Shown here: one piece after another, positions 4,714 through 37,771 of the stretch
Position numbering within the stretch: the first letter of the stretch is position 1
How the letters are laid out: every line of letters begins with the position of its first letter
NCBI GenBank assembly: GCA_934276735.1
Contig: CAKQTG010000002.1
Location: forward strand, 270,638-334,637
Direction: 5' to 3'
DNA length: 64,000 nt
Source: an uncultured Alphaproteobacteria bacterium
Lineage (GTDB): Bacteria; Pseudomonadota; Alphaproteobacteria; Rs-D84
Notes under the pieces: model-generated
Told to the model about the DNA's origin: nothing
Databases searched by the model: none
Seen by the model: only the letters and a program-made list of their open reading frames with translations
Made by a program: the position numbers and the translations under genes

Positions 4714-5592
4714 TTACTTTACCCCCATGCCAAATCTGTCCCAGCGCATTTTGCTGTTCCAATTCCATACCGCAATCATTGGCGAATAATAGTTGTGTGA
4801 ATACCATATAAACCACGCCGGTCCCAACACATTATCACGTGGGACAAAGCCAACGTCGGCACGACTGTCCAAACTGTTATCGCGATTGTCACCCATAAAG
4901 AAATAGTGATTTTCAGGTACCGTGAACAACGGCGTGTTATCCAGGGGCGCGTCATCAGATGCCTCGATAATACTGTGCTGGACACCATTTGGTAATGTTT
5001 CAGTGTATTCGGTCATATGGAATACCCCGCACGCCCCGTCATACATACGGCACAGACGGTCATCTTTGTATTCAATTGTATAATTAAATGGCGCAGGCGC
5101 ATTATCAATCCAAATTTTGTTGCCCTTTATCGACATATTGTCCTGGTAATAGCCGACACTGCGTAACGATTTCGGCAGGTTCGCGACAATGTATTCACCC
5201 TTTTTTTCGCGCGGGACAATTGTGCCATTTATATACAGCCGCCCATCAATCATTTGCACCGTATCACCCGGCACGGCAATCAGACGTTTAATATAATCCT
5301 GGGATTCGTTGACGGGATTGCGAAATACCACCACATCGCCAACCGACGGATTATGCCCCCAAAATCGACCGTTCCACATTTTCCATGAACCAAACGGGAA
5401 CGAATAACGGGAATATCCATATGACCACTTTTGCACAAAGATATGATCCCCCACATGCAATGTCGGTATCATAGAGCCCGACGGGATATTAAACGGTTCC
5501 AGCAAAAAACTGCGAAAGATAATCGCAATCAACGCACCATAGAATATCGTGTTAAACCATTCACGCGCAGCATTAGTATTTTTCAGTGGCAT
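4714..5592 (-). CDS. lepB: signal peptidase I
   Basis: PSGSMIPTL supplies the catalytic Ser box. There is an N-terminal TM helix, and the gene lies immediately upstream of rnc in the conserved lepB-rnc arrangement. Confidence 0.85.
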   Translation of the reverse strand: MPLKNTNAAREWFNTIFYGALIAIIFRSFLLEPFNIPSGSMIPTLHVGDHIFVQKWSYGYSRYSFPFGSWKMWNGRFWGHNPSVGDVVVFRNPVNESQDYIKRLIAVPGDTVQMIDGRLYINGTIVPREKKGEYIVANLPKSLRSVGYYQDNMSIKGNKIWIDNAPAPFNYTIEYKDDRLCRMYDGACGVFHMTEYTETLPNGVQHSIIEASDDAPLDNTPLFTVPENHYFFMGDNRDNSLDSRADVGFVPRDNVLGPAWFIWYSHNYYSPMIAVWNWNSKMRWDRFGMGVK

Positions 5593-5665
5593 TTCTGTAT
5601 TCCCCTTTGTAACACGGGGTATTTTATAACTTGAATTGATTCAGCGCAAGTTTTAATATGCGAAT

Positions 5666-7192
5666 ATGATTTCACTGAATTCAATTATATTTAATGGGAT
5701 GGACGCCACGCGCATTGACGTCCAGGTTCAACTGGCGTCGGGCCTGTCCAGTCCGGAATTTAATATCATTGGCCTGGCTGACCGCGCGGTCAAGGAATCA
5801 GCAGAACGTATAAAAAGCGTATTGGGGGCACTGAACATAACAATGCCACCGAAAAGATTGACTGTAAACCTGTCGCCAGCAGACGTGGAAAAGACTGGCG
5901 CACATTTTGACCTGCCGATACTGTGCGGGATATTGTGCGCACTAGGTATTTTGCCCGAAGATAAACTGTCTCATTACCTGATATTGGGCGAAGTTGGCCT
6001 GAACGGCACAATCGTTCGCACCGATGGCGTTTTACCCGCCAGTGTGTGGGCGCGCCGCAATGGCCTGGGCGTGATTTGCCCCGCGCCCCAGGGGACCGAG
6101 GCCCGCCTGTCCGGGCATGCCGATATTTTGGCACCGGGGCACGTGTTGGAATTGATAAATCACTTTAATGGGACAAATGTCCTGTCTGCGCCCGACGCCG
6201 CACCCAATTATGCGCCCACCACCACATATGGCGACATGTCCGAGGTACACGGCCAAGCCGCCGCAAAACGCGCACTGGAAATCGCCGCGGCTGGTGGTCA
6301 CGCAATGCTGATGGTTGGGCCACCGGGGTCGGGAAAAACAATGCTGGCGTCACGATTGCCAGGAATTATGCCGGAAATGACCGCCGATGAAATTCTGGAA
6401 ACATCAATAATATATTCTATTGCTGGACTGTTGGGGACGCGCGGGCTGATTACTACGCGCCCATTTCGTAGCGTCCACCACACTGCGTCCCAGGTTGCAC
6501 TGGCAGGTGGTGGCGCAAACGCACGTCCTGGCGAAATATCACTGGCGCATAATGGCGTGCTGTTTTTGGACGAATTGCCAGAATTTAATCGCGCGACGCT
6601 AGAAATCCTGCGACAGCCGATGGAGTCTGGAAAAATTATGATTTCGCGTGCGAAAAATACCGCAACATATCCAGCACGATTCCAGCTGATTGCAGCGATG
6701 AATCCGTGTCCATGCGGACATCTGGGCAATGCCGCCCTGTCCTGTTCGCGTGCGCCCCGTTGCGCCGAAGCATACCAGAACAAAATATCAGGGCCACTGT
6801 TAGATCGAATAGACTTGCATGTTGATGTTGACCCGGTAAATCCCTGGGAAATGAATAATACTGACAACACACCACGCGAAAACAGTGCGCAAATCCGCAC
6901 CCGTGTTGTCGCCGCATATAAACGCCAGATTGTGCGCCAGGGTTGCCAGAATGCGCATCTGGACGGCACGGCATTGGACGCGGCGGCGACACTGGCACCA
7001 GAACTGCAAAACTTTTTAAACACTGCCGCAGAAAAGATGGGAATGTCGGCACGCGGATATAACCGCGTTCGTCGCATTGCACGTACAATTGCCGATTTGG
7101 CCGGACGCAACGAAATTGAAATGGGTGACATTGCCGAGGCGTTATCATACCGCCCCATCAATCGCGGAAAATATGGTGCAAACATTAAGTGA
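5666..7192 (+). CDS. YifB/ComM family Mg-chelatase-like AAA+ ATPase
   Basis: Walker A is GPPGSGKT and Walker B is LFLDELPEF. A zinc-finger-like CPCG motif is present. Confidence 0.8.
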   Translation: MISLNSIIFNGMDATRIDVQVQLASGLSSPEFNIIGLADRAVKESAERIKSVLGALNITMPPKRLTVNLSPADVEKTGAHFDLPILCGILCALGILPEDKLSHYLILGEVGLNGTIVRTDGVLPASVWARRNGLGVICPAPQGTEARLSGHADILAPGHVLELINHFNGTNVLSAPDAAPNYAPTTTYGDMSEVHGQAAAKRALEIAAAGGHAMLMVGPPGSGKTMLASRLPGIMPEMTADEILETSIIYSIAGLLGTRGLITTRPFRSVHHTASQVALAGGGANARPGEISLAHNGVLFLDELPEFNRATLEILRQPMESGKIMISRAKNTATYPARFQLIAAMNPCPCGHLGNAALSCSRAPRCAEAYQNKISGPLLDRIDLHVDVDPVNPWEMNNTDNTPRENSAQIRTRVVAAYKRQIVRQGCQNAHLDGTALDAAATLAPELQNFLNTAAEKMGMSARGYNRVRRIARTIADLAGRNEIEMGDIAEALSYRPINRGKYGANIK

Positions 7193-7232: not shown

Positions 7233-7593
7233 AGAAAGCGTTCTGAAAATTAAATCCGAATTGTTTGCAGACAGAATTGTCAGGTTATTCAAATATCTGC
7301 AAACAACGCATTCCGAATTTGTGTTATCAAAACAAATTTTACGTTCTGGGACCAGCATGGGCGCCAATGTATCAGAGGCTGCTTTTGCCGCATCAAAAAA
7401 AGATTTTTTAGCAAAAATGATTATTGCAACCAAAGAATACAATGAAACTATTTTCTGGTTGCAAAGGTTAAAAAATGCACATTATTTGTCAGACGAACAA
7501 TTTACATCAATACATAATGATTGTCTAGAACTGGGACGTTTGCTGATGGCCACAACGCGCACGACCAAGGCATCAATATTATCAGACAAATAA
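7228..7593 (+). CDS. four-helix-bundle protein of the 23S rRNA intervening-sequence protein family
   Basis: The sequence LQTTHSEFVLSKQILRSGTSMGANVSEA...ETIFWLQ is typical of the four-helix-bundle/IVS protein family. The GTG start lies inside the repeat arm. Confidence 0.65.
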   Translation: MKESVLKIKSELFADRIVRLFKYLQTTHSEFVLSKQILRSGTSMGANVSEAAFAASKKDFLAKMIIATKEYNETIFWLQRLKNAHYLSDEQFTSIHNDCLELGRLLMATTRTTKASILSDK

Positions 7594-7628
7594 CTTTATC
7601 ACTAAATCACTTTATCACTTACTCACTA
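7592..7628. repeat. right inverted-repeat arm
   Basis: cactttatcactaaatcactttatcacttactcact is the reverse complement of the iterated left-arm motif. A bidirectional terminator hairpin follows at 7629-7660. Confidence 0.6.
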
Positions 7629-7652
7629 AAAAATGGGGCATCGCCCCATTTT

Positions 7653-8618
7653 TTAAAATTCGAATCGCAGGCCCAACATTATGTTGGTATATATTAAATT
7701 CTTGGCACTGAACCAATCGCGATGCTTGGTATCATCAGAATTTGTCAGTTGCCATTCAACCTTGGGGATATACATGGCGCGAATGCCAAAGTCCAAAAAT
7801 GTGTTTTCTGCCAATCCATATGACACACCGACCGCCGCCAATGCCGCAACCATAGAATTGCTTTTTTCGGCGCGATAGAATTGGAACACGCCATTATCAT
7901 CAGGTGTGCTGAAATCCTGTAACGTATACACCCCCGACAGGTCGCCATACGGATCCGACAGGTTCAGGACCGTCTGGACATCTGCATATCCAATACCAAA
8001 ACCAACGTATGGGATTACCGTCTGTAACGGTTTCTGCAACCCGTCAAAGAAATCATAGAACGCCATCGCACTGATGACATCGGTCGTTATGTCCGATTGG
8101 ACCGCGCCACTGCTGACAACAACAGGGTCGGTATACGCGCCATCAAACAGGGTTGTTTCACCCTCTAAGAAAGGCGAGTGGTTATATTCACTCTTGCTGA
8201 CGTGATCCCAGCCCACTTCTAATCGCCACTGGGGTCGATTTGGCAATGTCCAACCAACCGATGCACCGGCCGCAAATGCAAATGCGTCCAATTTATCGTC
8301 ACGGACCGGCAATTCACCCAGGTTTGCATACCCCGCAAATGTATAACCACTGCACCCGCCGGCGCGAACGCATATAATTTCAGGGAACGGCGCACCGCCA
8401 GATTCCATATAATACGCCGGGGTCAAATCACCCACGTCATTTTGAATTTTTGCCGTGCCGAACGACATGCCACCACGCACTGAAATAACAAAGCGCGAGC
8501 CATCATCACTGAACCAGCCATCGCCGATATATTCGCCATCATATTGCCAATTTGCATGGGCCGCACTTCCAAATAATGCGACGAAAATAGGTAACAAAAA
8601 TAAAAATCTTTTTCTCAT
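7653..8618 (-). CDS. outer-membrane beta-barrel protein
   Basis: The signal peptide is MRKRFLFLLPIFVALFGSAAHA. The protein has amphipathic beta-strand character and a C-terminal ...LGLRFEF ending in aromatic Phe. Confidence 0.55.
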   Translation of the reverse strand: MRKRFLFLLPIFVALFGSAAHANWQYDGEYIGDGWFSDDGSRFVISVRGGMSFGTAKIQNDVGDLTPAYYMESGGAPFPEIICVRAGGCSGYTFAGYANLGELPVRDDKLDAFAFAAGASVGWTLPNRPQWRLEVGWDHVSKSEYNHSPFLEGETTLFDGAYTDPVVVSSGAVQSDITTDVISAMAFYDFFDGLQKPLQTVIPYVGFGIGYADVQTVLNLSDPYGDLSGVYTLQDFSTPDDNGVFQFYRAEKSNSMVAALAAVGVSYGLAENTFLDFGIRAMYIPKVEWQLTNSDDTKHRDWFSAKNLIYTNIMLGLRFEF

Positions 8619-16474: not shown

Positions 16475-17707
16475 TTACAAACAATCTCTTAACTCTTTAT
16501 TATATCGTAACATTGTTGGTTGATTGGCAGGATCGTACAATATGTTTTTTTGATCAAAAATTAATTCTACAGCATTACCATGATGATCAATCAACAAAAC
16601 ATCATTGCCTCTAGACCGCATTTCTATATTTCTGTTGCGATTTTGGGTTATTATTGCATGTCTATATGCATCTATGTAAACCATATTTTCCCATTTATCG
16701 AACAACTTATATTGTTCAGGGCTTTCCGCCCAAGACAAAGGAACAACATGATGTAGTTCAAACCCTACTGTTCTTTTAACTTTGTGTTTATTGAAATACG
16801 CTTCCTTCTCAGCAATCGAACGAGTCATAACATCAATTACCTCGCCTGCTTTCGTTTTAATCTTATGTGTTGACAAATTCAAGTCATCCCCCACCACATC
16901 AAAATGAGGACTTTGTGCAAACAAATGATATACTTGATCTATTTTATTTTTCCAATTATGCCAATCTCGCTGTGCAGTCTTATCCCCATCAAAATTTTCT
17001 GGTTTTAATTTATCAGACAAAATCTCTATAACTTTTATTTGCAGATATTTGCCTAACCTGCGATATGTGTGTATCAAATCAACACACTGTTCTAAAGTTA
17101 TAGAAAAACTCGTTCCCGAATCTACGGCTGAAACAAAAAACATGAATTCATATTTTGTAATCGTACCGATATGATATTCAGGCTCCTTCAATAATTGTAA
17201 AGCAATTTCTATATATCCACCCAACAAAGTATCTATCGCCTTTGTAAAAATAAATGATCTATTCAACAGATCTCTTTCTCTTATAAACTTTACGCCATCT
17301 GGTGATAACGACACATATTTTGGCGATATGCGCCCGTACGGCGAAATAAAATTTCTATTCTTGTCATATCTAGTTATCAGCCCCATACGGTGTAAGTCAA
17401 CGAAAATGTTTTTGCGTATTGAGTCTTGAGTTCCCTTTCCAACGGCTGCGTTAACTTCCTCACAAAATCTAGCATAATCATATTCATCTATTGTGTTTTC
17501 TGGCCGTTTCTTTGAATCGGTATCCCTTATTCTCAAAAGTTGATTATTTGGGGCATACCTATCCAAACACATAAGCATTTTATAAATTTCATCCATATCA
17601 TAACGATTATGTTCTGACGAAACACCACCGCGATAATTAACATCATTAACTCTTGCATCTATAAAAGATAACGCCTCGTTTGGACTCAATCCACTAACAT
17701 AAATCAT
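16475..17707 (-). CDS. putative restriction endonuclease (third gene of the RM operon)
   Basis: This 410 aa product has no recognisable motif. It overlaps the upstream methylase stop by 4 nt (ATGA) and shares the AT-rich composition of the methylases. Its size is comparable with Type IIS R proteins. Confidence 0.35.
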   Translation of the reverse strand: MIYVSGLSPNEALSFIDARVNDVNYRGGVSSEHNRYDMDEIYKMLMCLDRYAPNNQLLRIRDTDSKKRPENTIDEYDYARFCEEVNAAVGKGTQDSIRKNIFVDLHRMGLITRYDKNRNFISPYGRISPKYVSLSPDGVKFIRERDLLNRSFIFTKAIDTLLGGYIEIALQLLKEPEYHIGTITKYEFMFFVSAVDSGTSFSITLEQCVDLIHTYRRLGKYLQIKVIEILSDKLKPENFDGDKTAQRDWHNWKNKIDQVYHLFAQSPHFDVVGDDLNLSTHKIKTKAGEVIDVMTRSIAEKEAYFNKHKVKRTVGFELHHVVPLSWAESPEQYKLFDKWENMVYIDAYRHAIITQNRNRNIEMRSRGNDVLLIDHHGNAVELIFDQKNILYDPANQPTMLRYNKELRDCL

Positions 17708-18495
17708 TGCACTACCCCTAGATTATTTTTTGTTAACTCTACATATTTTTTTGATTTGTCAGCACAAATATAGTTTCTATGCAATTTTTTTGCAACAACA
17801 GCTGTTGTTCCACTACCAACAAAACAATCCAAAACAAGTTCTCCTTTATTTGAACTCGCCAAAATCATGCGTTCAATCATTTCCTCTGGTTTTGGTGTGA
17901 CGTGCTGTTGTTTTTGCACTTTGCCATTAACTTTATTTTTGTGACGCTGACTTGTTATGTGCCACACTTCACCACATAACCTGCCATTCGGATTTGGAAA
18001 CCAACGTTTCCCATTTTTTAATATTCCTTTCGTTTTTGCAGCTTCTATTCTGTCTGTAGATTCATAAGGAACACGTATGTCATTGTGATTAAAAGTATAT
18101 TTATTAGACTTTGTAAAAAATAATATACTCTCTTGTCCATTTGCATATTTTTTTGTGGATGTACCGAGTCCATCCCTTTTATCCCAAGTGATCCAATTTT
18201 GGAACACTAGTCCACGTTTTAACAAATGCTGCAAAATAAACGCACAATTAAAAGGTGTATTAAAAATATATATACTTCCTGTATCTTTCAGTTTTGGTAT
18301 AAGTGCGTCTATCCATTTTCTTGTAAATTTCATAAAATCATCATGCGATGCAAATGTGTCCCAATCAGCTTTCCCCATATTGTAAGGTGGATCTATGACA
18401 GCCAAATCAACAGATAAGTTCTTTACCTGTTTCAGGAAGTTTATACAATCCATATTATAAATTTCGTTAATCGCCAAACAACCCATCGCTAGCAC
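17704..18495 (-). CDS. beta-class DNA methyltransferase (N6-adenine type, DPPY)
   Basis: Motif IV is VIDPPYNMG near the N-terminus and motif I is LDCFVGSGTTAVVA near the C-terminus. Confidence 0.75.
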   Translation of the reverse strand: MLAMGCLAINEIYNMDCINFLKQVKNLSVDLAVIDPPYNMGKADWDTFASHDDFMKFTRKWIDALIPKLKDTGSIYIFNTPFNCAFILQHLLKRGLVFQNWITWDKRDGLGTSTKKYANGQESILFFTKSNKYTFNHNDIRVPYESTDRIEAAKTKGILKNGKRWFPNPNGRLCGEVWHITSQRHKNKVNGKVQKQQHVTPKPEEMIERMILASSNKGELVLDCFVGSGTTAVVAKKLHRNYICADKSKKYVELTKNNLGVVQ

Positions 18496-19387
18496 CTAAC
18501 TTTTTATTGATTATATCTTTGTAATGATCATACAATTCATATCCTACAAAATGTCTCTTGTTTTCTTTTGCAACTTTAAGTGTTGTTCCGCTACCCGCGA
18601 AAGGATCAAGTATCAATTCACCAACAAAAGAATACAATCTAATCAATCTGCGAGCTATTTCTTCAGGCATGATAGCTGAATGTATACCAAATGCAAGATC
18701 GCCTTTTCCAGGGATTGGTATGTTCCAAATCTGCTTTGTATATTCGACCCACTCTTGCTGTGTTAGCTGGCTGGCATCTTTTATATCCTGTGGCAACCCA
18801 TTTTCAGGACTTCCTTCTTTCACAAATACTACTATGAATTCACACGAATTCTGGGCATAAAAATTACGTGGATATGGATAACTGCCAAACATCAATTTCT
18901 TGGACGAATTTGTTCTGTTCCATATAAACAAATCCAATAAAAATAATTTTGTGTTTTTTAATATTGACTGTTGTATGTGACTCTGTAAATCAAATATGTC
19001 CCTGTTATAATGCGTGCACATTTGGGATTTCAACATCGGCATTAACGGAACATTTATGCACAACTTACCATTAGGCTTCAACACCCTTTCACATTCTTTC
19101 CAAATTTTTACTAAACCTGCGATATAATCATCAAAATCGGCATAAGCCCCCATATCATCACACTTCCTTTCAGAATGTTTACAATCTTGGTGACCATCTT
19201 TACTGTAATCTTTTATGTTAAAATATGGCGGTGATGTCACAATAACCTGAACCGAATTATCCGGCAATTCTGACATTTTTTCCGAACTTTTGTAGAAAAC
19301 TTTATCAATGTATTCTTTCATTTTCTTTCCTTGCTGAAAACTTAGCCCAAAACAATGGATAAAGTCAAGGGAACAATCAAAAAACAT
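18467..19387 (-). CDS. beta-class DNA methyltransferase (SPPY type, N4-cytosine or N6-adenine)
   Basis: Motif IV is VTSPPYFNIKDY and motif I is LDPFAGSGTT. It overlaps the next methylase gene by 29 nt. Confidence 0.75.
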   Translation of the reverse strand: MFFDCSLDFIHCFGLSFQQGKKMKEYIDKVFYKSSEKMSELPDNSVQVIVTSPPYFNIKDYSKDGHQDCKHSERKCDDMGAYADFDDYIAGLVKIWKECERVLKPNGKLCINVPLMPMLKSQMCTHYNRDIFDLQSHIQQSILKNTKLFLLDLFIWNRTNSSKKLMFGSYPYPRNFYAQNSCEFIVVFVKEGSPENGLPQDIKDASQLTQQEWVEYTKQIWNIPIPGKGDLAFGIHSAIMPEEIARRLIRLYSFVGELILDPFAGSGTTLKVAKENKRHFVGYELYDHYKDIINKKLGASDGLFGD

Positions 19388-20025: not shown

Positions 20026-20101
20026 TCGGGCATAGTTCAGTCGGTAGAACAACGGACTGTTAATCCGTATGTCACTGGTTCGAGTCCAGTTGCCCGAGCC
20101 A
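20026..20101 (+). tRNA. tRNA-Asn (anticodon GTT)
   Basis: A cloverleaf can be drawn with acceptor TCGGGCA/TGCCCGA, D-arm GTTC-AGTCGGTA-GAAC, anticodon arm ACGGA-CTGTTAA-TCCGT and T-arm ACTGG-TTCGAGT-CCAGT. CCA is encoded. Confidence 0.85.
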
Positions 20102-20746
20102 CCTATTTCCGCAGATTTCTGCGGATTTTTTATTATCTATTCTCTACCACGTTTTTATGCAAAATTGGATGAAAGTTGCTCTAAATTGCCCTAGTTATAA
20201 AACAAAAACACATATTTGACACACAGTAATATATACTATTACTGCTGAAATCATCTCTGAAATCACACAGATTTCATACTTGAAACCATAGATGAAATCG
20301 TGATGGAATCATACCTGATTTCAGTATTGATTTCATACCTGAAAAGAGCCTTTTTTTGCCTGCGAAATATGGAACGCTATTCCGTCAGTCACAAAACCAA
20401 AACACACAAAAATCAAACAGTTATAAAAATACGATTTTTCCCCATGTGTCAAATATGTGTCTTTATTTTTGCACTTTTTTATTTTTGAATAAACAACTGG
20501 ACAAAGACAAAAAATAAGCACAAATGCAATGATTACTTAAAGTATTTATAAACGACAAATATCCAACCGGCCTAATAATAGCCCACCCCCAAAAAAAGCA
20601 AACGTGTTTTATATCGCTATGGGGTACAAAATTTACATAAAATATAACCTGCTTCCTCTTGAAAAATTTGAATTCGATCCTATATCTATCTGCACAAAGG
20701 AAGATTTTTATGCGTATATTTATAAACATAATCGGATATTGTACAG

Positions 20747-21262
20747 ATGGAGAATGGCATGCAACCAAAACACCAAGTGTTTTTTAGTTTTCATTTTGCC
20801 CGCGATGCCTGGCGAGCAGGTCAGGTAAGAAACATTAGAGATTTGGACGGCAATACGCCCGTGTCTGATAATGATTGGGAACAGGTTAAACGCGGCGGGG
20901 ATGCGGCGATTCGAACTTGGATAGAAAATCAATTGAAATACAAATCTTGTACAATTGTTTTGATAGGGACGGAAACTGCAAGTCGTCCATGGGTTAATTA
21001 TGAAATTAAGCGAAGTTGGGAGCTTGGCAAAGGCGTGTTGGGGATTTATGTGCATAATTTGCAAGACCGCATGTGCACTCAATCGCCCAAAGGGTCAAAC
21101 CCTTTTGCAAATTTTAATTTGAATGGTGTGCCTTTTGATAAAATTGTTCCAGTATATTGTGTCGAAGATTGGGAACCAAGCACAGAAGTTTATAAAAAAA
21201 TTGCCACAAATATTGGTTCGTGGGTGGAGAACGCAATTAGGATCCGGCAATTATACCCTTAA
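20747..21262 (+). CDS. TIR-like domain protein (DUF1863/MTH538-type, ThsB-like)
   Basis: The N-terminus VFFSFHFARDAWRAGQV and the segment CTIVLIG...SRPWVNYEIKRSWELGKG are hallmarks of the DUF1863 TIR-like family. Confidence 0.65.
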   Translation: MENGMQPKHQVFFSFHFARDAWRAGQVRNIRDLDGNTPVSDNDWEQVKRGGDAAIRTWIENQLKYKSCTIVLIGTETASRPWVNYEIKRSWELGKGVLGIYVHNLQDRMCTQSPKGSNPFANFNLNGVPFDKIVPVYCVEDWEPSTEVYKKIATNIGSWVENAIRIRQLYP

Positions 21263-21267
21263 CAGAT

Positions 21268-21921
21268 ATGGAGGAATATATGAGCAATTATTTTAATATA
21301 AAAGATTTCGATACACTTGAATTAAAATCACCCCCACGGCATTTTAATAATAGTTTTGCGTGTGACGAGTCGATTGGCAAACAGGGTGCGTATGATATAT
21401 TTATCTCCCATAGCTCTGCAAACAGGGAGCTTATCAGCAAATTACGGCAAGTTTTGGAAGAACGGTTTGGTTTGTCCGCATATATTGATTGGGATGAAGA
21501 TGGTGGTACAATAAGAGACGAAATTACAGAAAAAATAAAAAACGCTATGGATCGTTCTAAATCTCTATTATATGTAAAGACATCAGAATCTGACGACTCT
21601 CAATGGGTAGCATGGGAGGTAGGAAGGTTCGATGCAAAAAAACCAGATAATATTGCTGTCTTGCTTATTGAAGATGATAAATTTACCGAGGACACATGGC
21701 GACACAGAGAGTTTTTAAAGGATTATCAAATATTAGATAAAACAGATAATATTAAAGATTTTGTAAATATGGGACATAAAAAATTCTTCACTGCCAAACA
21801 AGCGCGCGACCTATCTTCTAAACTCAATTCTGGTGCAATCGCGGCAGTGGCTGCAATGGGGTCGTTATGCGATGTAACCCCCGGGTTAGGAACGCCAACG
21901 AAATACTTTGGTGACGAATAA
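21268..21921 (+). CDS. TIR domain protein (canonical bacterial TIR, ThsB-like)
   Basis: The sequence YDIFISHSSANRE...SAYIDWDE...SQWVAWEVGRF contains a candidate catalytic Glu in WEVG. The RBS is ggagg, and the gene is 5 nt downstream of the previous gene. Confidence 0.7.
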   Translation: MEEYMSNYFNIKDFDTLELKSPPRHFNNSFACDESIGKQGAYDIFISHSSANRELISKLRQVLEERFGLSAYIDWDEDGGTIRDEITEKIKNAMDRSKSLLYVKTSESDDSQWVAWEVGRFDAKKPDNIAVLLIEDDKFTEDTWRHREFLKDYQILDKTDNIKDFVNMGHKKFFTAKQARDLSSKLNSGAIAAVAAMGSLCDVTPGLGTPTKYFGDE

Positions 21922-21927
21922 TATAAA

Positions 21928-22458
21928 ATGAGAAAATTTACGAACACCAAACCCAGTTTATGGTATTTTAGACTTGCATTTGTAATTTTGAGCAGGTTCC
22001 CTAATTGTAAATGTCGCTGGGGTGCGAGAGACAAATTTATTATTTGGGAATATACGTATGTTTCACAAATAACACACAAGGCGTTCACGTTTTGTTTAAA
22101 TTACGAAATCTATCAAGAGCCTCGAATATGGGTTGTAGAGCCAGACCTTACACAACTTGCAGCTACAGAATTAAAACACGTTTATCCCCAACACTGCAAT
22201 CGTTTATGCTTGTTTCACCCCCACGATGCGCCATGGAATACACGCAAGGATATTATTAACACTATCATTACATGGGCGTTTTTATGGGTCGAATTTTATG
22301 AGTCCTGGAAAATTACAGGTTTTTGGTATGGAGCAGAGGCAGATCATACTCCAATACAAAAAACACACCAAAGCAATTTATCAAGGGAAACGCACCAGAA
22401 AAAACACTATAATAAAAATCTTCCTAAATATTTGAAAAACCATCCAATTAGATACTAG
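21928..22458 (+). CDS. hypothetical protein, third gene of the TIR operon (candidate effector)
   Basis: The 176 aa, Trp-rich product has no recognisable motif. It starts 6 nt after the TIR gene stop. Confidence 0.45.
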   Translation: MRKFTNTKPSLWYFRLAFVILSRFPNCKCRWGARDKFIIWEYTYVSQITHKAFTFCLNYEIYQEPRIWVVEPDLTQLAATELKHVYPQHCNRLCLFHPHDAPWNTRKDIINTIITWAFLWVEFYESWKITGFWYGAEADHTPIQKTHQSNLSRETHQKKHYNKNLPKYLKNHPIRY

Positions 22459-22569
22459 CCGTGTGTTTTATCGATATGACATTTGCTAACTTTTTACAAT
22501 CTTGTTTATAACCTCAATAAAACCATTCCCATTTTTCGCTGAATAAAGCCAGTGCTGTTTTTTTGCCTG

Positions 22570-23079
22570 TTATAGCTTTAGATGGCAGGTCCCTATTGTT
22601 GATAGGACATAATATACTACTAGTATCAATATGATAAAAAATGCAATCTTATAAACACTAAGCGATTTTGAGTTTAGAACATCTGACATACGAATGTACG
22701 TTTGTATATTTGCGATATTCATATCAAATAGAGCACATTTGTCCGCCAACGCATCGGTATATTTTTGGCGATAACACCGTTCCAGCCACAAATAATAAGC
22801 ATCAAACCAGAAAAAGCTAAGTGTCAATATAATTGCTAAAACAAGCAAGGCTACGTTTGGCAGTTTAAAATACAAAGCTATGAGTCCGCCGACAGAAACC
22901 ATAAACCAATTTTTTATCGAAAAGGAATTGCCATTCATTCTGGCAATAATATTCTGCAACATTTCTAAAAATTTAATTTTTTCGCTTTGCATACGATTAA
23001 CGATACTACACATCGATATAAATGCAAGTAAAACCAGAATTTTTGCACAAAAACCGGACTTCCGCAAAAAAACAAGCAC
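22570..23079 (-). CDS. small multi-pass membrane protein
   Basis: There are three to four hydrophobic helices across 169 aa. The start is ambiguous and could be 23079, 23010 or 22992. Confidence 0.4.
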   Translation of the reverse strand: MLVFLRKSGFCAKILVLLAFISMCSIVNRMQSEKIKFLEMLQNIIARMNGNSFSIKNWFMVSVGGLIALYFKLPNVALLVLAIILTLSFFWFDAYYLWLERCYRQKYTDALADKCALFDMNIANIQTYIRMSDVLNSKSLSVYKIAFFIILILVVYYVLSTIGTCHLKL

Positions 23080-23109
23080 AAATGCAACAACTTTTAAAGG
23101 GGTTGCATA

Positions 23110-23375
23110 TGAATTTCAAACATTTTGATGATATTAAACCAAATGATAAGGCACAATTTGAGATGCTATATTTTTCTGCCCAAAGGGCTTTAAGAAGGTT
23201 AGAACTTAAACTAAACAGGATTTATAACGGTAAAACGCCAAAACATTTGCGTATAGAATTAAAACAACTCAACCGCAAACTCACCCAAATGGCAGGCACA
23301 TGGAAAAATATATATTCCCCTTGCATTTACATAGAATTTTTTATATTCATTATGAATGAGAAAGAATACGTATGA
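23110..23375 (+). CDS. small hypothetical protein
   Basis: An RBS (aaagggg) lies 8 nt upstream. The 88 aa basic helical product starts MNFKHFDD.... Confidence 0.3.
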
Positions 23376-23431
23376 AACGGCTCTAAAATAGTTATTGATA
23401 TATTAAAAATATTTGTATATTAGGAGATATT

Positions 23432-23635
23432 ATGAAATTCGGAATCAGAACACCTTCGTTGAGTAAAAGAATTGCAGCAAGAACATCTTTAAAAAGAATT
23501 ATTAGACATAATTTGGGTGTTAAAGTTCCCAGAGGCTTCGGATGGATAACAAACCCTAAAAAAGCTGCCTATAACAGGGTATATAATAGAACCTCTATAA
23601 GCATCGATAAGCTATTCAAGAAAATCTTTAAATAA
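23432..23635 (+). CDS. small basic hypothetical protein
   Basis: A strong RBS (ttaggagatatt) precedes the ATG. The product is 67 aa and lysine/arginine rich. Confidence 0.35.
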   Translation: MKFGIRTPSLSKRIAARTSLKRIIRHNLGVKVPRGFGWITNPKKAAYNRVYNRTSISIDKLFKKIFK

Positions 23636-23650
23636 CATAGGAGTCAAGTT

Positions 23651-23884
23651 ATGAGTTCTACAATATGGCATTCAAATACAGAAGTTCCAGAAAATGGGGC
23701 TGATATTTTATGTATCGGCCATAACAGTAATGGCGACTTTATAATTTATGGCAAGGCAGAACATTATCAAAATAGTTTTTGTATTGTTGACAATGTAGAG
23801 GTTGAATATGCCACTGATATAGACAAGTGGTGTTATGCGAAAGATTTATTGGAATTATTAAAAAAAACTGACAGTTATAAATAA
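23651..23884 (+). CDS. small hypothetical protein
   Basis: The RBS is cataggagtcaagtt followed by ATG. The product is 77 aa. Confidence 0.35.
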   Translation: MSSTIWHSNTEVPENGADILCIGHNSNGDFIIYGKAEHYQNSFCIVDNVEVEYATDIDKWCYAKDLLELLKKTDSYK

Positions 23885-24141: not shown

Positions 24142-25836
24142 TTATTTTGATAAGCGCACATCTATTAAATCTTTTATCTCGCTATTCTTGAATAAATTGT
24201 TATATGAAAATTTTGATCCAAGTTCTTCTTGCTTTTTGCTTGCTATATTTTTGACAACCTCTTCTGCTTTTTCTATATTTTTATTAAAAAGAGCCACAAC
24301 TTCTTTTTCTTGGATATTGGGAAGTTTTAAATTAGCTTCTATAGATGATAATGCATACATTATTGCATAAATAGCATGCGAAAAGAAAGTATCTGTTGCT
24401 GCTTTATTTTTTATTTCTTTCCAAACAATGTATGCGTTATACAATTTATTTTGTATATTATTTTCTAGTTCTTTTTCAGAAAAAACAGAATCAAAATACT
24501 GGTTAAAAACAGATATTTTTGACACCTTCGCTTTTCCCGGCTCATTCAAAAACATAGCCACATAAGCCTGTAATAAATTTTCATTAGTTATGCTATCATT
24601 ATAATCTGTTAGTTCCTGTCCAACTTTTACAATTAAAGCAACTCCCTTGGTTTTAAAATACAGAGCTACTTTTTCTTGAATAAGATCATTAGATTTTAAA
24701 TCAACAACATTGATTGGGTTTTGGGAATTTGTTGCTTGTGCTATTTGTTGCATAATATCAGGATCTTTAGTTTTATACACACGCAATAACACTTTCGCCT
24801 TACTTAATTGTTCATAATTTTGTGATTCCCGATAAAATTTTGATAAAGCAGCAACGGTTTGCCCACCGTTAACTATACTCGGGCGCGTCAAAGTCAAGTT
24901 TATTTTTTCCTTATTACCTGTATGACCAGTTTTATAATCATCTGCTATAATTGTAATACCATTATTAAAAAACCAAAACAGTTCTGGTTTTTCACTTGCT
25001 GTTTTAATAATTTCTTTATTAATTTTACTTTTAGGCAAAAGATATCTCACATTGGAATTCAACAAAGCACCTTCATTGTTTTGTTTATAAAAATCAACTA
25101 AGTCACTTAAATATACTTCGGTTATAAACCCCGTTATAACCTGTGGTAAATCTTGTTTTAGAGTTTTGTCATCACAAATAATTTTTATTGTCGCACTATC
25201 AGGAACCTTCTCTTTTAATCCAAAATTTGTACTATCTATAAAATTTACATTTATCTCGTTGTTTATAGCTGTTTCTACAGCATCAGATTGCTTTAACACT
25301 TCCCCAATTATACCATTCGTTGAAAAGAAAACATGTACTCTGAGAGTAGGCCAATCATTTTGCTCACAAACCTCTCTAAGTTTATCAAGTTTTGATTTTA
25401 GCAACAAATTTGTAGTAGATAAATTCTCGCCCTTTTTTATTTTTTCTACGTTTTTTAGACATAATTCTATTTCATCTTGTGTAAATGTATTTTTGGCCTT
25501 TTTAGAAACGTGTTTGGCTTGTACTACAATCACATCCATAAATTTTTCATTAGAATTTGGCAGGGACACTATACTTTCATCATCAAAATATAGCAAATCT
25601 ATTTTGTTATCGCCACTGCCGTCCGTTAAGAAACAAATCGAAGAATTTATATCTACTTTTTTATATTCCATTATAGTAACTACAGCAGTAGCCAAAGAGT
25701 TAATATATTCTTTGTTTTGCAAACCTTGCCCATAATGCTTTTTAGCATATTCAGACTTTTTTATTAGCTTAGTGTTATCTTCTATTAGTCTATTAAATTT
25801 ATTTAAAGCATATTCATTTATGGAGGCATTAGACAT
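24142..25836 (-). CDS. AIPR family abortive-infection protein
   Basis: The N-terminal region reads CFLTDGSGDNKIDLLYFDDESIV, resembling the AIPR DGSGDxGID core. The gene is 564 aa and starts 10 bp after the R gene stop. Confidence 0.6.
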   Translation of the reverse strand: MSNASINEYALNKFNRLIEDNTKLIKKSEYAKKHYGQGLQNKEYINSLATAVVTIMEYKKVDINSSICFLTDGSGDNKIDLLYFDDESIVSLPNSNEKFMDVIVVQAKHVSKKAKNTFTQDEIELCLKNVEKIKKGENLSTTNLLLKSKLDKLREVCEQNDWPTLRVHVFFSTNGIIGEVLKQSDAVETAINNEINVNFIDSTNFGLKEKVPDSATIKIICDDKTLKQDLPQVITGFITEVYLSDLVDFYKQNNEGALLNSNVRYLLPKSKINKEIIKTASEKPELFWFFNNGITIIADDYKTGHTGNKEKINLTLTRPSIVNGGQTVAALSKFYRESQNYEQLSKAKVLLRVYKTKDPDIMQQIAQATNSQNPINVVDLKSNDLIQEKVALYFKTKGVALIVKVGQELTDYNDSITNENLLQAYVAMFLNEPGKAKVSKISVFNQYFDSVFSEKELENNIQNKLYNAYIVWKEIKNKAATDTFFSHAIYAIMYALSSIEANLKLPNIQEKEVVALFNKNIEKAEEVVKNIASKKQEELGSKFSYNNLFKNSEIKDLIDVRLSK

Positions 25837-25846
25837 TTTATTTACC

Positions 25847-26743
25847 TTACCTTAATAGCCCTTCCAACACACCTTTTTGAACCATGTCGATGTTAAGGAT
25901 ATAATCTGTTGTATCAAAAGTATCGCGTAACGGTCGCTGAGTTTTCTGCCAGCCTAAACCATCCGTTATCCATATAAACTGGTGCCCGTCTTTTGTCCAC
26001 TGATGATAAATATCTGCATATTCGCCTGCGGTTGATTTTAATTTTGATCCGCCACCGCCATAGAAATTTGTTTCTATCAGATATAGTTTATTAGGGGTAT
26101 TTATAGCAAAATCAACACGCTTGGATGATTTATTCACAATAATATTTTTACTCCATTTTCTATAAATTTTATCTGCTGTCGCCTGCGCAATATATTCATA
26201 ACCATTACGGTCACAAATATCTTTTATAAAATATTCCATCAAGTTTTCCATTGATGTGCCACTGCGGTTCTTGCGCCCATTTGAATCAAGTCCAACTTCT
26301 ACACCAAGAAAATAATCTGGTATAGATTTAATTGTACGGTCAGATACTAAATCAAGGAAGCCACTTGCTTTCATAAATAGGACACCATCCTCTGCAGACA
26401 TAGGCTTTGAAAAGTCAAAGCATTTAAGTCCAAAAGTTTTTATATCTGAAACAAGTTTAATTTTCTTTTCTCTATCGGCTAACAGTGCCGGTATAACACC
26501 TATAATTTTTGGATATTCCTTTAATAAATCTTTTGCTGCTTTTTCAACATCCGCCTTACCAATCAGAGTATTCAATAAGTTTAGTGCAATCTCTGCTTCG
26601 TGATAATTATTGATAACTTTTGACCAGTTAACAAAATAATCCCAAGATGTTATACTTTCTTTTAGGGTTGAAATCAAATAACCAAAAACGTCATCTTCGT
26701 TCTTGCAGCCCAAAAGTTCATCAAAAATTTTAGAATACTTCAT
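25847..26743 (-). CDS. Type II restriction endonuclease, DpnII/MboI-like (GATC-type system inferred)
   Basis: This is the third gene of a Dam-like M / beta-class M / R cassette with the same order and similar sizes to dpnM-dpnA-dpnB. It overlaps the upstream methylase gene by 4 nt. The product is 298 aa. Confidence 0.5.
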   Translation of the reverse strand: MKYSKIFDELLGCKNEDDVFGYLISTLKESITSWDYFVNWSKVINNYHEAEIALNLLNTLIGKADVEKAAKDLLKEYPKIIGVIPALLADREKKIKLVSDIKTFGLKCFDFSKPMSAEDGVLFMKASGFLDLVSDRTIKSIPDYFLGVEVGLDSNGRKNRSGTSMENLMEYFIKDICDRNGYEYIAQATADKIYRKWSKNIIVNKSSKRVDFAINTPNKLYLIETNFYGGGGSKLKSTAGEYADIYHQWTKDGHQFIWITDGLGWQKTQRPLRDTFDTTDYILNIDMVQKGVLEGLLR

Positions 26744-27525
26744 TTTATTCCTTTCTTTTCAAGGATATCATACAGCCTTTTTTCTGCCAATTCAACAAAT
26801 TGCGTTTCCTGTTCTATACCGACAAACATTCTGTCATATTTTAATGCCGCAACCCCAGTTGTACCACTGCCCATAAAAGGATCTAATATTAAATCGCCCA
26901 GATTTGTACAACATAAAATTATTCTTTCCAATAAATCCAAAGGCTTTTGTGTTGGATGCTTGCCAAAAGTTTTTTCTGATTTTGATGGCGTTGGAATAGA
27001 CCAAACACTGCGCATCTGGCAATCTGGCTTTTTCAAAATATCTTTTGGGAATGAACCACATTTCATGGCATCGTAATTAAATATATGTTTCGCGTTCTTA
27101 CTTTTTCTCGCCCAGATAAGTGTTTCATGGCTCGCGGTAAAGTATCTACAAGACATATTTGGACTAGCATTTGGTTTATACCACGCAACATCATTTAATA
27201 TATGAAAGCCCAACAACTGCATTGCAAAGCCACATGAGTATATACTGTGGTATGTACCACTTATCCAAATTGTGCCATTTGGTTTTAACACTCGCCAGCA
27301 TGCAGAAAGCCACTTTTTATGAAACTCAAAATCATTCATCAGTCCGTGCGACTCGTCCCACTTGCCTTTATTAACCGATACAACTTGACCATTTTGGCAC
27401 GTTATCCCCCCATTTGACAACATATAAGGCGGATCCGCAAAAATCATATCAAAGGTATTTTCTGGAATCTTTTCCAGACACGTTAAGCAATCTTCACAAT
27501 AAAGGCGAAAAGGTTTCTTAGTCAT
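26740..27525 (-). CDS. beta-class N6-adenine DNA methyltransferase (DpnA-like)
   Basis: Motif IV is IFADPPYMLSNGG near the N-terminus and motif I is LDPFMGSGTTGVAA near the C-terminus. Confidence 0.8.
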   Translation of the reverse strand: MTKKPFRLYCEDCLTCLEKIPENTFDMIFADPPYMLSNGGITCQNGQVVSVNKGKWDESHGLMNDFEFHKKWLSACWRVLKPNGTIWISGTYHSIYSCGFAMQLLGFHILNDVAWYKPNASPNMSCRYFTASHETLIWARKSKNAKHIFNYDAMKCGSFPKDILKKPDCQMRSVWSIPTPSKSEKTFGKHPTQKPLDLLERIILCCTNLGDLILDPFMGSGTTGVAALKYDRMFVGIEQETQFVELAEKRLYDILEKKGIK

Positions 27526-28450
27526 AATTAGTTATCAATAACTCACGAATAGCACTGCGCCCGTCTGCATTTGCATTTATCAAACGCTTTGCAAGTATTC
27601 TATTTATATTATAGTCTTGGTATAAATCATCAAAGAATGTGTCTTTTATATAATTTGTTGGATCAGAATTACTTAACATTTGTAAAGCACCCGCTTTATC
27701 ACACGCTTCAAAAACATTCTTAAGGCGAATTTGCTCATCATCATTAAAATCCCCAACAGCATAAGAATTAAACGAAGATGTTTTTCTAATCGGGCGATAT
27801 GGTGGGTCGTAATAGATAAACGTATCTTTATTTACATACTCTTGAACAGAACTAAAATCTGTTTGGATAATAGTCGCAATCTGTAAAGCGTCTGATACAT
27901 TGCGCAAATTTTCTGCGTCTAATATTCTTGGGTTGGTATACTTACCCATCGGAACATTAAACATATTTTTCGAATTAACACGAAACAATCCATTAAAACA
28001 CGTTCTGTTTAAGAATATGGTCAACGCTACACGTCTGACAAACCGCTGATTATAAATATTTGCATCGACGGTTTTGTCCATGTTGTTATATTCATCACGC
28101 CTTGCGTAATAATATTCTTTTTTATCTTCTGTATGATTATACTCTGCACTTATTTTTGTCAGTTCAACTATCAATTTTTCAACATCATGTTTGATAACAT
28201 TATACAGAATAACCAACTCAGGATTGATATCAAACAAGAAAGCCTCTTTGATTGAGAACCGATTATAAATATCGAAGAACACAGCCCCACCACCAACAAA
28301 GGGTTCTATGTATCTTTTTATCCCACCCATTTTCAATTTTAAGGGCAGTTTTTCATCGATTTTATCTAATAGCTGTCCCTTGCCCCCTGCCCATTTTAAT
28401 ACAGGTTTGCACTCAATATAATCCGCTAATTTTGCTGGCAGTGGTGACAA
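27518..28450 (-). CDS. Dam-family (alpha-class) N6-adenine DNA methyltransferase (DpnM-like)
   Basis: Motif I is EPFVGGGAVFFDI near the N-terminus and motif IV is IYYDPPYRP. The Dam family recognises GATC. Confidence 0.8.
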   Translation of the reverse strand: MSPLPAKLADYIECKPVLKWAGGKGQLLDKIDEKLPLKLKMGGIKRYIEPFVGGGAVFFDIYNRFSIKEAFLFDINPELVILYNVIKHDVEKLIVELTKISAEYNHTEDKKEYYYARRDEYNNMDKTVDANIYNQRFVRRVALTIFLNRTCFNGLFRVNSKNMFNVPMGKYTNPRILDAENLRNVSDALQIATIIQTDFSSVQEYVNKDTFIYYDPPYRPIRKTSSFNSYAVGDFNDDEQIRLKNVFEACDKAGALQMLSNSDPTNYIKDTFFDDLYQDYNINRILAKRLINANADGRSAIRELLITNYD

Positions 28451-37519: not shown

Positions 37520-37771
37520 TCGAACCCCTTCTTCGGGTTCTTCGTCCCTGCGCCCCGGAAAAATTAAACGGCCGCATTAGCGACCGTTGAATTTTTCTGG
37601 TGGGGACACAGGGATTGGCTGCGCCGACCTTGGGCAATCGCCTGGCGGCGACCGGCGTTATTCCGCCTTTGCCCGGCGGTTCGAACCCCTTCTTCGGGTT
37701 CTTCGTCCCGTGTCCGGCAAAAATTAAAACGCCGACAAGCGGCGTTTGAATTTTTGGTGGGGACACAGGGA
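37520..37771. repeat. two ~95 bp direct-repeat units, each a terminator hairpin plus a tRNA-Lys 3'-end copy
   Basis: Units lie at 37520-37614 and 37676-37771. They share ttcgaaccccttcttcgggttcttcgtccc, a terminator-like hairpin, gaattttt and tggtggggacacaggga. The second unit runs into the tRNA gene itself. Confidence 0.6.

Follow-up and report, generated by a model that had tools for sequence, protein, structure and literature searches.

In a 64,000-nucleotide (nt) stretch of DNA from an uncultured alphaproteobacterium (contig CAKQTG010000002.1; below, the window, to whose positions all coordinates of its genes refer), four neighbouring genes are best read, in our opinion, as a single Thoeris-type abortive-infection system. 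In this system, a small protein with three transmembrane (3-TM) helices would be the effector, two ThsB-type TIR proteins would be the sensors, and one of the two sensors would be controlled by a ubiquitin-E2-like enzyme that acts independently of any E1. Judging from sequence comparisons, we would give this reading a probability of roughly 60%. On the + strand lie gene 1 (20747-21262), an untailed ThsB-type TIR protein (DUF1863/ThsB_TIR) of 171 amino acids (aa), or 167 aa from an alternative start at 20759; gene 2 (21268-21921), a 217-aa tailed TIR protein of the TIR_2 type with its TIR domain at approximately residues 42-165; and gene 3 (21928-22458), the 176-aa E2-like enzyme. Gene 4, the small 3-TM protein, is convergent with them on the - strand (22570-23013) and has 147 aa if started from the ATG at 23013 or 140 aa if started from 22992. 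An initial annotation, made from the letters alone, had already suspected a Thoeris-like TIR system lacking a canonical ThsA, and this much is borne out: there are two ThsB-type TIR proteins, and our domain scans found no SIR2, Macro or SLOG domain in any tested open reading frame (ORF) of the genomic island in which the locus lies.

By sequence and by predicted structure, gene 3 is a ubiquitin-E2-like enzyme of a known family, namely the E2 proteins of cyclic-oligonucleotide-based antiphage signalling systems (CBASS). The PADLOC models for CBASS "E2" match it with a best value of 4.3e-29, and precomputed annotation places Pfam PF26395, "E2-CBASS", on every gene 3 homologue in a large protein collection; a direct Pfam-A scan gave no match for gene 3, the copy used being apparently one without PF26395. 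When 14 homologues (alignment A1) were made into a profile and the sequences of the PDB searched with it, a single family was returned, that of the E2 from the CdnG-E2 complex of Serratia marcescens (SmE2; 8hsb_B/8yjy/9kkb), at 4.6e-20. Likewise, the AlphaFold2 model of gene 3, with a predicted local distance difference test score (pLDDT) of 77.7, finds 8yjy_B as its top match in Foldseek (E 1e-7, TM-score 0.63/0.69), followed by eukaryotic UBC enzymes. These four lines of evidence agree, and on them we accept the E2 identity of gene 3 and reject the view of it as an unknown protein. The alignment to SmE2 pairs His87 and Cys101 of the latter with His84 (22177-22179) and the putative catalytic Cys94 (22207-22209) of gene 3; the second histidine of gene 3 is His140 (22345-22347), all three being on the + strand. 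His84, Cys94, Trp133 and Gly135 are invariant across the TIR-linked E2s and the CBASS E2s that we collected, while His140 is invariant in the TIR-linked clade, with a histidine at or near the corresponding position in CBASS E2s (H152 in SmE2). The E2 fold, the catalytic cysteine and the two histidines that mark E2-CBASS (C101, H87 and H152 in SmE2) are, in other words, all found in gene 3. In SmE2, C101 and H87 are required for cleavage and covalent linkage, and H152 controls the switch between isopeptide and thioester (Yan et al.). The description of the 176-aa protein as novel and without a recognisable motif has to be given up, as it belongs to the E2-CBASS family and has kept the catalytic residues of the Serratia enzyme.

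On which protein would such an enzyme act? Residues 170-217 of gene 2 (HKKFF...GTPTKYFG-DE; 21775-21918, + strand) make up a C-terminal tail, which we predict to be an E2-recognition module, and the predicted site of attachment and cleavage is Gly215 (21910-21912) in its ending ...TKYFG215-DE. For comparison, we used 13 distinct loci with E2 relatives of 37-99% identity, namely the group of the window (L005-L010), L011, L036, L041, L037, L019, L002/3, L016, L001, L040, L004, L039 and L017 (labels in L stand for loci and labels in P for clusters among the relatives inspected). Every TIR protein encoded next to an E2 (13/13 loci) is extended at its C-terminus by about 48 aa, and the TIR proteins elsewhere in the same loci, such as gene 1 of the window, the downstream TIR of L019 and the ThsB of L001, have no such extension. 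The tail ends in [FY][FY]-Gly followed by 1-7 residues in 11 of the 13, and the CD-NTases (cGAS/DncV-like nucleotidyltransferases) found next to CBASS E2s end, in ten cases out of ten, in [FY][FYCH]-Gly followed by 1-5 residues (e.g. ...NQFYGD), a terminal motif which occurs in only about 2 of 590 unrelated ORFs. Gene 2 has what the upstream partner has in E2-CBASS: a C-terminal module, a conserved glycine and a short leaving peptide. What is more, the tail is carried by two TIR families, the TIR_2 type, as in gene 2, and a long ThsB_TIR type (L002/L003, L016), and a hidden Markov model (HMM) made from the TIR_2-type tails alone detects the tails of the ThsB_TIR type at 6.7e-7 and 3e-6, with no other significant match among 1308 ORFs. 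The tail HMM also matches five loci outside its training set (L036, L037, L039, L040 and L041) with values from 1e-5 to 2e-13. Because every E2-adjacent TIR protein bears a matching C-terminal glycine tail, gene 3 appears tied to gene 2 and not to the system as a whole. The suggestion that the 176-aa protein could be the signal receptor or effector is, for an E2-like enzyme tied specifically to gene 2, implausible.

The E2s linked to TIR proteins are few and constitute a clade apart. When 1.84 billion representative proteins were searched, 1376 clusters of E2-like proteins at 50% identity emerged, of which approximately 10-12, in the top-scoring block (E<=1e-30), are TIR-linked. The members of this clade have a C-terminal motif of their own, PKYLKNHPIR in gene 3 (22423-22452, + strand), which follows a disordered lysine-rich linker and has the consensus PxYLKxxP[IT]R, with [YFH] at position 3. 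Pro166, Leu169 and Pro173 are invariant, and Lys170 and Arg175 are at least 90% conserved. The motif was found in P0182-P0189 and P0191 and in none of the CBASS-type E2s, and P0184, which was picked solely by this motif, likewise turned out to be TIR-linked. In the AlphaFold2 model of gene 3, its last two residue blocks have pLDDT values of 71 and 90, versus 28-39 in the linker. Given that the acceptor Lys159 of SmE2 is located in an unstructured C-terminus (PMC12948482), Lys170 of gene 3 is a candidate isopeptide acceptor, and the motif as a whole could be an acceptor-lysine site or a docking peptide.

That the genes of the locus are conserved together elsewhere, as had been anticipated, is supported by the related loci. 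Namely, the gene directly upstream of the E2 (at -17 to +9 nt) encodes a tailed TIR protein in 13/13 loci, and a Thoeris-type effector adjoins the tailed TIR-E2 pair in all 12 loci with enough flanking sequence. In eight of these, the effector belongs to the gene 4 family; in two it is a SIR2-SLOG ThsA (L001, L040), and in two an LD_cluster3/SLOG protein together with a long TIR protein (L004, L039). The four-gene content recurs and is kept under at least four gene orders. The window has ThsB, tailed TIR and E2 with a convergent TM gene, L011 (a metagenome-assembled genome of Candidatus Enterousia) and L036 have TM-ThsB-tailed TIR-E2, and L041 has tailed TIR-E2-ThsB-TM. L019, with TM-tailed TIR-E2-TIR, and L037, with TIR-tailed TIR-E2-TM-TIR, are arranged in a related manner. 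A minimal three-gene form, TM-tailed ThsB-E2, is found in L002/3 and L016, where the tailed TIR protein is the only one next to the membrane protein. In L040, the E2 gene lies on the same strand as ThsA-ThsB and overlaps ThsA. It is because the content is conserved under shuffled order, and because the minimal three-gene form exists, that we think that the E2-controlled TIR protein would feed the same effector. Homologues of all four genes, 32-67% identical, keep both length and linkage across many unrelated contigs, and hence the four are not chance ORFs.

Distant E2s (23-32% identity; L012-L028 and the inspected plasmid matches) instead follow a SMODS/CD-NTase gene, and their loci are ordinary E2-CBASS with SAVED-2TM, patatin or HNH effectors. 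The plasmid matches are all below 31% identity, and the three inspected (H2 and H10 by their neighbourhood, H1 by its feature label) resembled E2-CBASS, for which reason we rejected the idea that TIR-linked E2s occur on plasmids; a scan of viral contigs gave no phage-borne relatives. We also rejected the view that the locus is what remains of a CBASS whose effector was a TIR protein: the island shows no domain of the SMODS/CD-NTase, SAVED, STING or patatin type, and gene 2 itself has neither SAVED nor STING. No E1 or JAB match was obtained in any ORF of the window locus or of the 13 related loci. As a separate observation, L037 (443-3645 of that locus) is a five-gene version, in which two extra ThsB-like TIR proteins (251 and 254 aa; PADLOC 3.5e-42 and 4.1e-67, no Pfam match) flank the core of tailed TIR, E2 and TM protein.

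Both TIR proteins are recognised with confidence. Gene 1, which had been described as a DUF1863-type TIR-like protein, indeed matches Pfam ThsB_TIR (PF08937) at 7.7e-26, the PADLOC models ThsB and PDC-M50B at 3.3e-66 and 2.9e-59, and the PDB entries 8wcf_A at 2e-40 and 6lhy (BcThsB) at 6e-16. Gene 1 also shares 54% identity (E 4e-58) with IMG 2620551307, a ThsB that Table S1 in 10.64898/2025.12.03.692087 labels "DUF2270 - Type V", which places gene 1 in the TIR cluster that partners ThsF in type V Thoeris; elsewhere, TIR proteins of this type are also partnered with ThsA and HIT effectors. Gene 2, for which a TIR domain with a putative catalytic glutamate had been noted, matches Pfam TIR_2 at 4.4e-11, PADLOC ThsB at 3.3e-29 and PDB 8btn_B at 2.7e-13. 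The putative catalytic glutamate is kept in both (Glu86 in gene 1, Glu117 in gene 2), and both qualify as ThsB-type TIR proteins such as a Thoeris system requires.

Gene 4 is the best candidate for the effector, and we predict from its sequence and company that it is a signal-activated membrane protein. It matches PADLOC PDC-M50A at 6e-27, its hydropathy profile has two segments of strong hydrophobicity and a third, weaker one, as would fit three membrane helices, and its AlphaFold2 model (pLDDT 86.4) consists of three long helices. The small convergent membrane protein had been noticed just downstream from the start, and both its ORF (22570-23079, - strand) and its hydropathy agree with that description; the ORF reaches back to a GTG at 23079, but, judging by homologues, translation probably begins at 23013 or 22992. 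At least 264 proteins make up the family, none of them annotated by Pfam, and a ThsB-type TIR gene adjoins a family member in 13/13 inspected loci, eight with an E2 and five without. The latter five are a Halorussus plasmid, a Terrisporobacter Thoeris island, a filamentous prophage of Vibrio parahaemolyticus, IncF plasmids of E. coli and a plasmid of Ligilactobacillus salivarius. Both components of PDC-M50 are present in the window, gene 4 as PDC-M50A and gene 1 as PDC-M50B, with two genes between them. As a SLATT protein, gene 4 gave sub-threshold matches only. Of the two proteins initially put forward as receptor or effector, it is the membrane protein, with its PDC-M50A match and the TIR gene beside it at every locus, that has gained in plausibility, and the 176-aa protein that has lost.

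Two of the E2-free loci deserve to be described on their own account. In Vibrio parahaemolyticus (GCA_049025105.1; L029, 3014-4408 of that locus), a ThsB of 267 aa (PADLOC ThsB 2.3e-59, no Pfam TIR match) and a protein of the gene 4 family stand beside Zot-type filamentous-phage genes, which suggests a prophage-borne, two-gene Thoeris-like pair. On an E. coli IncFIA/IncFII plasmid (CP098957.1; L033, 2175-3461 of that locus), a gene 4-family protein is likewise paired with a TIR protein, and such a pair is located close to repA on many conjugative plasmids of enterobacteria (Escherichia/Klebsiella; about 50 besides this one), where it is annotated just as "hypothetical protein" and "TIR domain-containing protein".

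How would the four proteins act together? Going beyond what the sequences and gene orders show, we infer the covalent processing of one sensor, the direction of its effect, the identity of the signal, the killing at the membrane and the protection against phage. Genes 1 and 2 would be infection sensors and would use NAD+ to make a signal derived from ADP-ribose, probably an isomer of cyclic ADP-ribose (cADPR) such as 3'cADPR, given that proteins closely related to gene 1 have SIR2-SLOG ThsA or type V effectors as their partners. This signal would activate gene 4, which would then oligomerise and breach the membrane. In Serratia, proteolysis by the E2 exposes a glycine that precedes a one-residue leaving group, and this glycine is linked to Cys101 and then to Lys159, all of it without E1 or ATP. 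By analogy with this CdnG-E2 pair, gene 3 would be dedicated to gene 2 and would bind its tail of about 48 aa; its Cys94/His84 centre would cut off the Asp-Glu that follows Gly215; and a Gly215~Cys94 thioester would form, from which the TIR protein would be transferred to a lysine, either in the E2 tail (possibly Lys170) or in another TIR protein. This covalent step would prime or polymerise the TIR protein and so set the threshold for signal production.

That said, several observations weigh against this proposal. Two tailed TIR proteins do not have the canonical glycine, namely those of L001 (...TKFFNDH; 7373-8011 of that locus) and L036 (...TKFFSSGQ; 5194-5847 of that locus); they may be decayed or may use an alternative attachment residue. 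The TIR tails and the CdnG tails agree in length, position and terminal motif only: their sequence similarity is not significant (best E 0.24), and we have dropped the idea of sequence homology to the C-terminal E2-binding motif of CdnG. In CdnG, a helix and a beta-sheet, about 47 residues in all and right before the glycine, bind the E2, and it is the structure and not the sequence of this module that is conserved (PMC12948482), so that the lack of significant similarity would fit. The TIR-E2 pair lies on the strand opposite to the Thoeris genes in L001, L004 and L039, which makes it look like a separable module. As for gene 4, it has no recognisable ligand-binding or sensor domain, and, being convergent in the window, it would need a promoter of its own. 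It has, moreover, no match to Pfam DUF2270 (PF10028) at E<=1, while 18 of 115 family members do match DUF2270, all below threshold and with a best E of 5e-5. Since the link to DUF2270 is only sub-threshold, we do not assign gene 4 to ThsF.

Would our conclusions be different if the E2 restrained the TIR protein instead of activating it? One could imagine a safety catch, in which the E2 covalently captures or caps the tailed TIR protein, keeps it inactive and limits autoimmunity, with signalling starting upon release or upon failed linkage during infection. Inhibition is common among the regulators of toxic abortive-infection systems, and conjugation by Cap2/Cap3 in type II CBASS is reported as reversible regulation (PMC11153139). 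Furthermore, the purified adduct of SmCdnG and SmE2 is a stable 1:1 heterodimer. On the other hand, TIR catalysis generally needs self-association, which covalent chaining would favour. In the only E2-CBASS studied so far, E2-driven poly-cGASylation is reported to activate the cyclase (10.1101/2022.05.25.493364). By this analogy, and because TIR catalysis depends on self-association, activation by the E2 is favoured over inhibition, and we consider a safety catch unlikely, though a serious alternative. An even less probable arrangement would have the E2 use the TIR tail as a ubiquitin-like handle, conjugating the TIR protein onto phage or host targets, where its NADase activity would be localised or triggered. 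Type II CBASS does offer a precedent, since there, according to a preprint (10.64898/2025.12.03.692087), Cap2 attaches CD-NTases to targets in the cell, and the extra conserved C-terminal motif of the TIR-linked E2 clade could serve as a docking element; without an E1 for recharging, however, each TIR protein would allow one transfer, powered by the cleaved peptide bond, and so strict a tie to signal-activated effectors points to a role in signalling. We regard such target conjugation as very unlikely.

A different question is whether there is one system here or two. Namely, genes 1 and 4 could form a Thoeris-like PDC-M50 pair that merely neighbours an independent unit, the tailed TIR protein of which would be an E2-switched, NAD+-depleting effector that sends no signal to gene 4. 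The cassette-like behaviour of the TIR-E2 pair speaks for such a division, as the pair stands beside three types of effector and, in the three loci mentioned above, on the opposite strand; PDC-M50 pairs are also abundant without an E2 (IncF plasmids, Lactobacillales, haloarchaea), and defence systems cluster for unrelated reasons, too. Yet the TIR-E2 pair is never seen without an adjacent Thoeris effector where the flanks are long enough to tell, its tailed member is the sole TIR protein beside the membrane protein in L002/L003 and L016, and in L040 ThsA-ThsB come directly after the E2 on its own strand. Moreover, the pair is wedged between the PDC-M50 genes, or placed behind them in one operon, in the window and in L011 and L036. 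For these reasons, two independent neighbours seem to us distinctly improbable, and we retain the single four-gene system as the preferred interpretation.

A broader version of the latter is more tentative, and we see it as possible rather than probable. The combination of a tail and a stand-alone E2 could be a portable, E1-independent ubiquitin-like control cassette that was transferred to three or more unrelated synthases of immune signals, with CD-NTases, TIR_2-type TIR proteins and DUF1863/ThsB-type TIR proteins as the recipients, and that drives what one may call poly-TIRylation. The energy of the peptide bond in the tail would be used to chain TIR domains covalently, and the TIR-TIR contacts forced in this way, needed for the NAD+ cyclase, would turn phage sensing into a burst of signal.

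As to the layout of the locus, the tight packing of the three + strand genes noted at the outset agrees with the ORF coordinates: the gap between genes 1 and 2 is 5 nt (CAGAT) and that between genes 2 and 3 is 6 nt (TATAAA). Gene calls in relatives place the starts of genes 1 and 2 at internal ATGs (167 and 213 aa), and with such starts the first gap would become 17 nt. A promoter-like site (20691-20720, + strand), a weak consensus match only, lies 27 nt upstream of gene 1, and the convergent gap of 111 nt between genes 3 and 4 (22459-22569) has terminator-like hairpins at 22537-22554 and 22565-22590, found by pattern match only. Genes 2 and 3 have no obvious Shine-Dalgarno sequence (21247-21267, …CCCTTAACAGAT ATG; 21907-21927, …AATAATATAAA ATG); they could be translated by coupling, or weak signals of this kind could suffice in the host. 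Between a tRNA-Asn(GTT) gene (20026-20101, + strand; ARAGORN) and gene 1, an element of about 270 bp (20199-20469) is bracketed by imperfect inverted repeats of 42 nt (20199-20240 and 20428-20469, 76% complementary), which enclose iteron-like repeats (TGAAATCA/TGATTTCA) clustered at 20246-20345. It could be a miniature inverted-repeat transposable element, an att/ori remnant or a regulatory region.

The locus is placed within a defence island that holds two restriction-modification systems and an AbiU/AIPR gene. In the GC profile, the island extends over approximately 16.0-29.0 kb, with 30-39% GC versus about 49% in the flanks, and it is bordered by ligA/fabI-like genes on one side and a NUDIX gene on the other. 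It is not tRNA-bounded, as had been stated: the tRNA-Asn gene is a landmark inside the island and outside the system, and the next tRNA is found only at 37755. Its other occupants are a type II restriction endonuclease with two methylases, the AbiU/AIPR gene (24142-25836) and a DpnII restriction-modification system with two methylases (25847-28450). The first group (16475-19387, - strand) lies immediately upstream of the tRNA-Asn gene, and in it a 410-aa protein without a Pfam match, found together with two N6_N4 methylases, matches a PADLOC type II restriction endonuclease model at 1.5e-117. Between gene 4 and AbiU, three small ORFs (117, 67 and 77 aa; 23022-23884, + strand) gave no PADLOC match. 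Neither the DUS of Neisseriaceae nor the USS of Pasteurellaceae occurs in the window.

If our interpretation is right, E1-independent ubiquitin-like self-processing would reach beyond cGAS-type enzymes to those of the TIR type, the second large family of synthases for immune signals, and one which is common to bacteria, plants and animals. The locus would be a compact four-gene model for how covalent modification gates TIR catalysis. Two families without an assigned role would also receive one: the membrane proteins of PDC-M50A would act as Thoeris effectors, and the clade of TIR-linked E2s would likewise gain a function. Further E2-controlled enzymes could be sought by a simple sequence marker, the tail motif ...[TS]K[YF][FY]G-xx. 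Tail-directed E2 control has so far been described only for cGAS-type (CBASS) systems and, by analogy with these, probably extends here to a TIR protein; we found no stand-alone E2 paired with a TIR protein in the literature searched, the coverage of which was incomplete, so that an earlier description may exist. The nearest match for CBASS-type conjugation together with Thoeris was a remark on Cap2/Cap3 in a 2025 preprint, which predicts, without experiments, Thoeris operons with Cap2 and Cap3 (10.64898/2025.12.03.692087, Fig. 6F/S10A).

Those operons share with ours the idea of a CBASS-type ubiquitin-like ancillary module that would act on a ThsB with a C-terminal glycine tail. However, their module is an E1-E2 fusion (Cap2) with a JAB peptidase (Cap3), whereas gene 3 is a lone E2 domain of 176 aa from the E2-CBASS family, and most of our loci add an untailed ThsB. 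PDC-M50 and type V Thoeris (ThsB with ThsF/DUF2270) likewise join a ThsB_TIR-type protein to a small 3-TM protein, but they consist of two genes, without an E2 or a tailed second TIR protein. According to Yirmiya et al. (10.64898/2025.12.03.692087), the product of type V ThsBs is 3'cADPR, and their partner ThsF, which has three TM helices, is predicted to assemble into a ring; PDC-M50 is a computational candidate from PADLOC, on which we found no paper in the literature searched. In type I Thoeris with multiple ThsBs (ThsA SIR2-SLOG), several TIR sensors feed one effector, as we propose here, and a tailed TIR-E2 pair stands beside canonical ThsA and ThsB in L001 and L040; in contrast, the window has no ThsA, and one of its ThsB paralogues would have gained a dedicated E2. 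The closest relative of gene 3 itself is E2-CBASS, the "short" type II CBASS of Serratia marcescens CdnG-E2 (PDB 8hsb/8yjy/9kkb). The two share the E2 family, with the catalytic cysteine and the first histidine invariant and the second histidine conserved, an E2 gene directly behind the gene for the signal synthase with no E1 and no JAB, and a synthase with a C-terminal module of about 50 aa that ends in aromatic-aromatic-Gly and 1-7 further residues. They differ in that the partner is here a TIR protein, from either of two TIR families, and not a CD-NTase, that the effector is of the Thoeris type and not activated by cyclic oligonucleotides, and that the TIR-linked E2s carry the additional PxYLKxxP[IT]R motif at their C-terminus.

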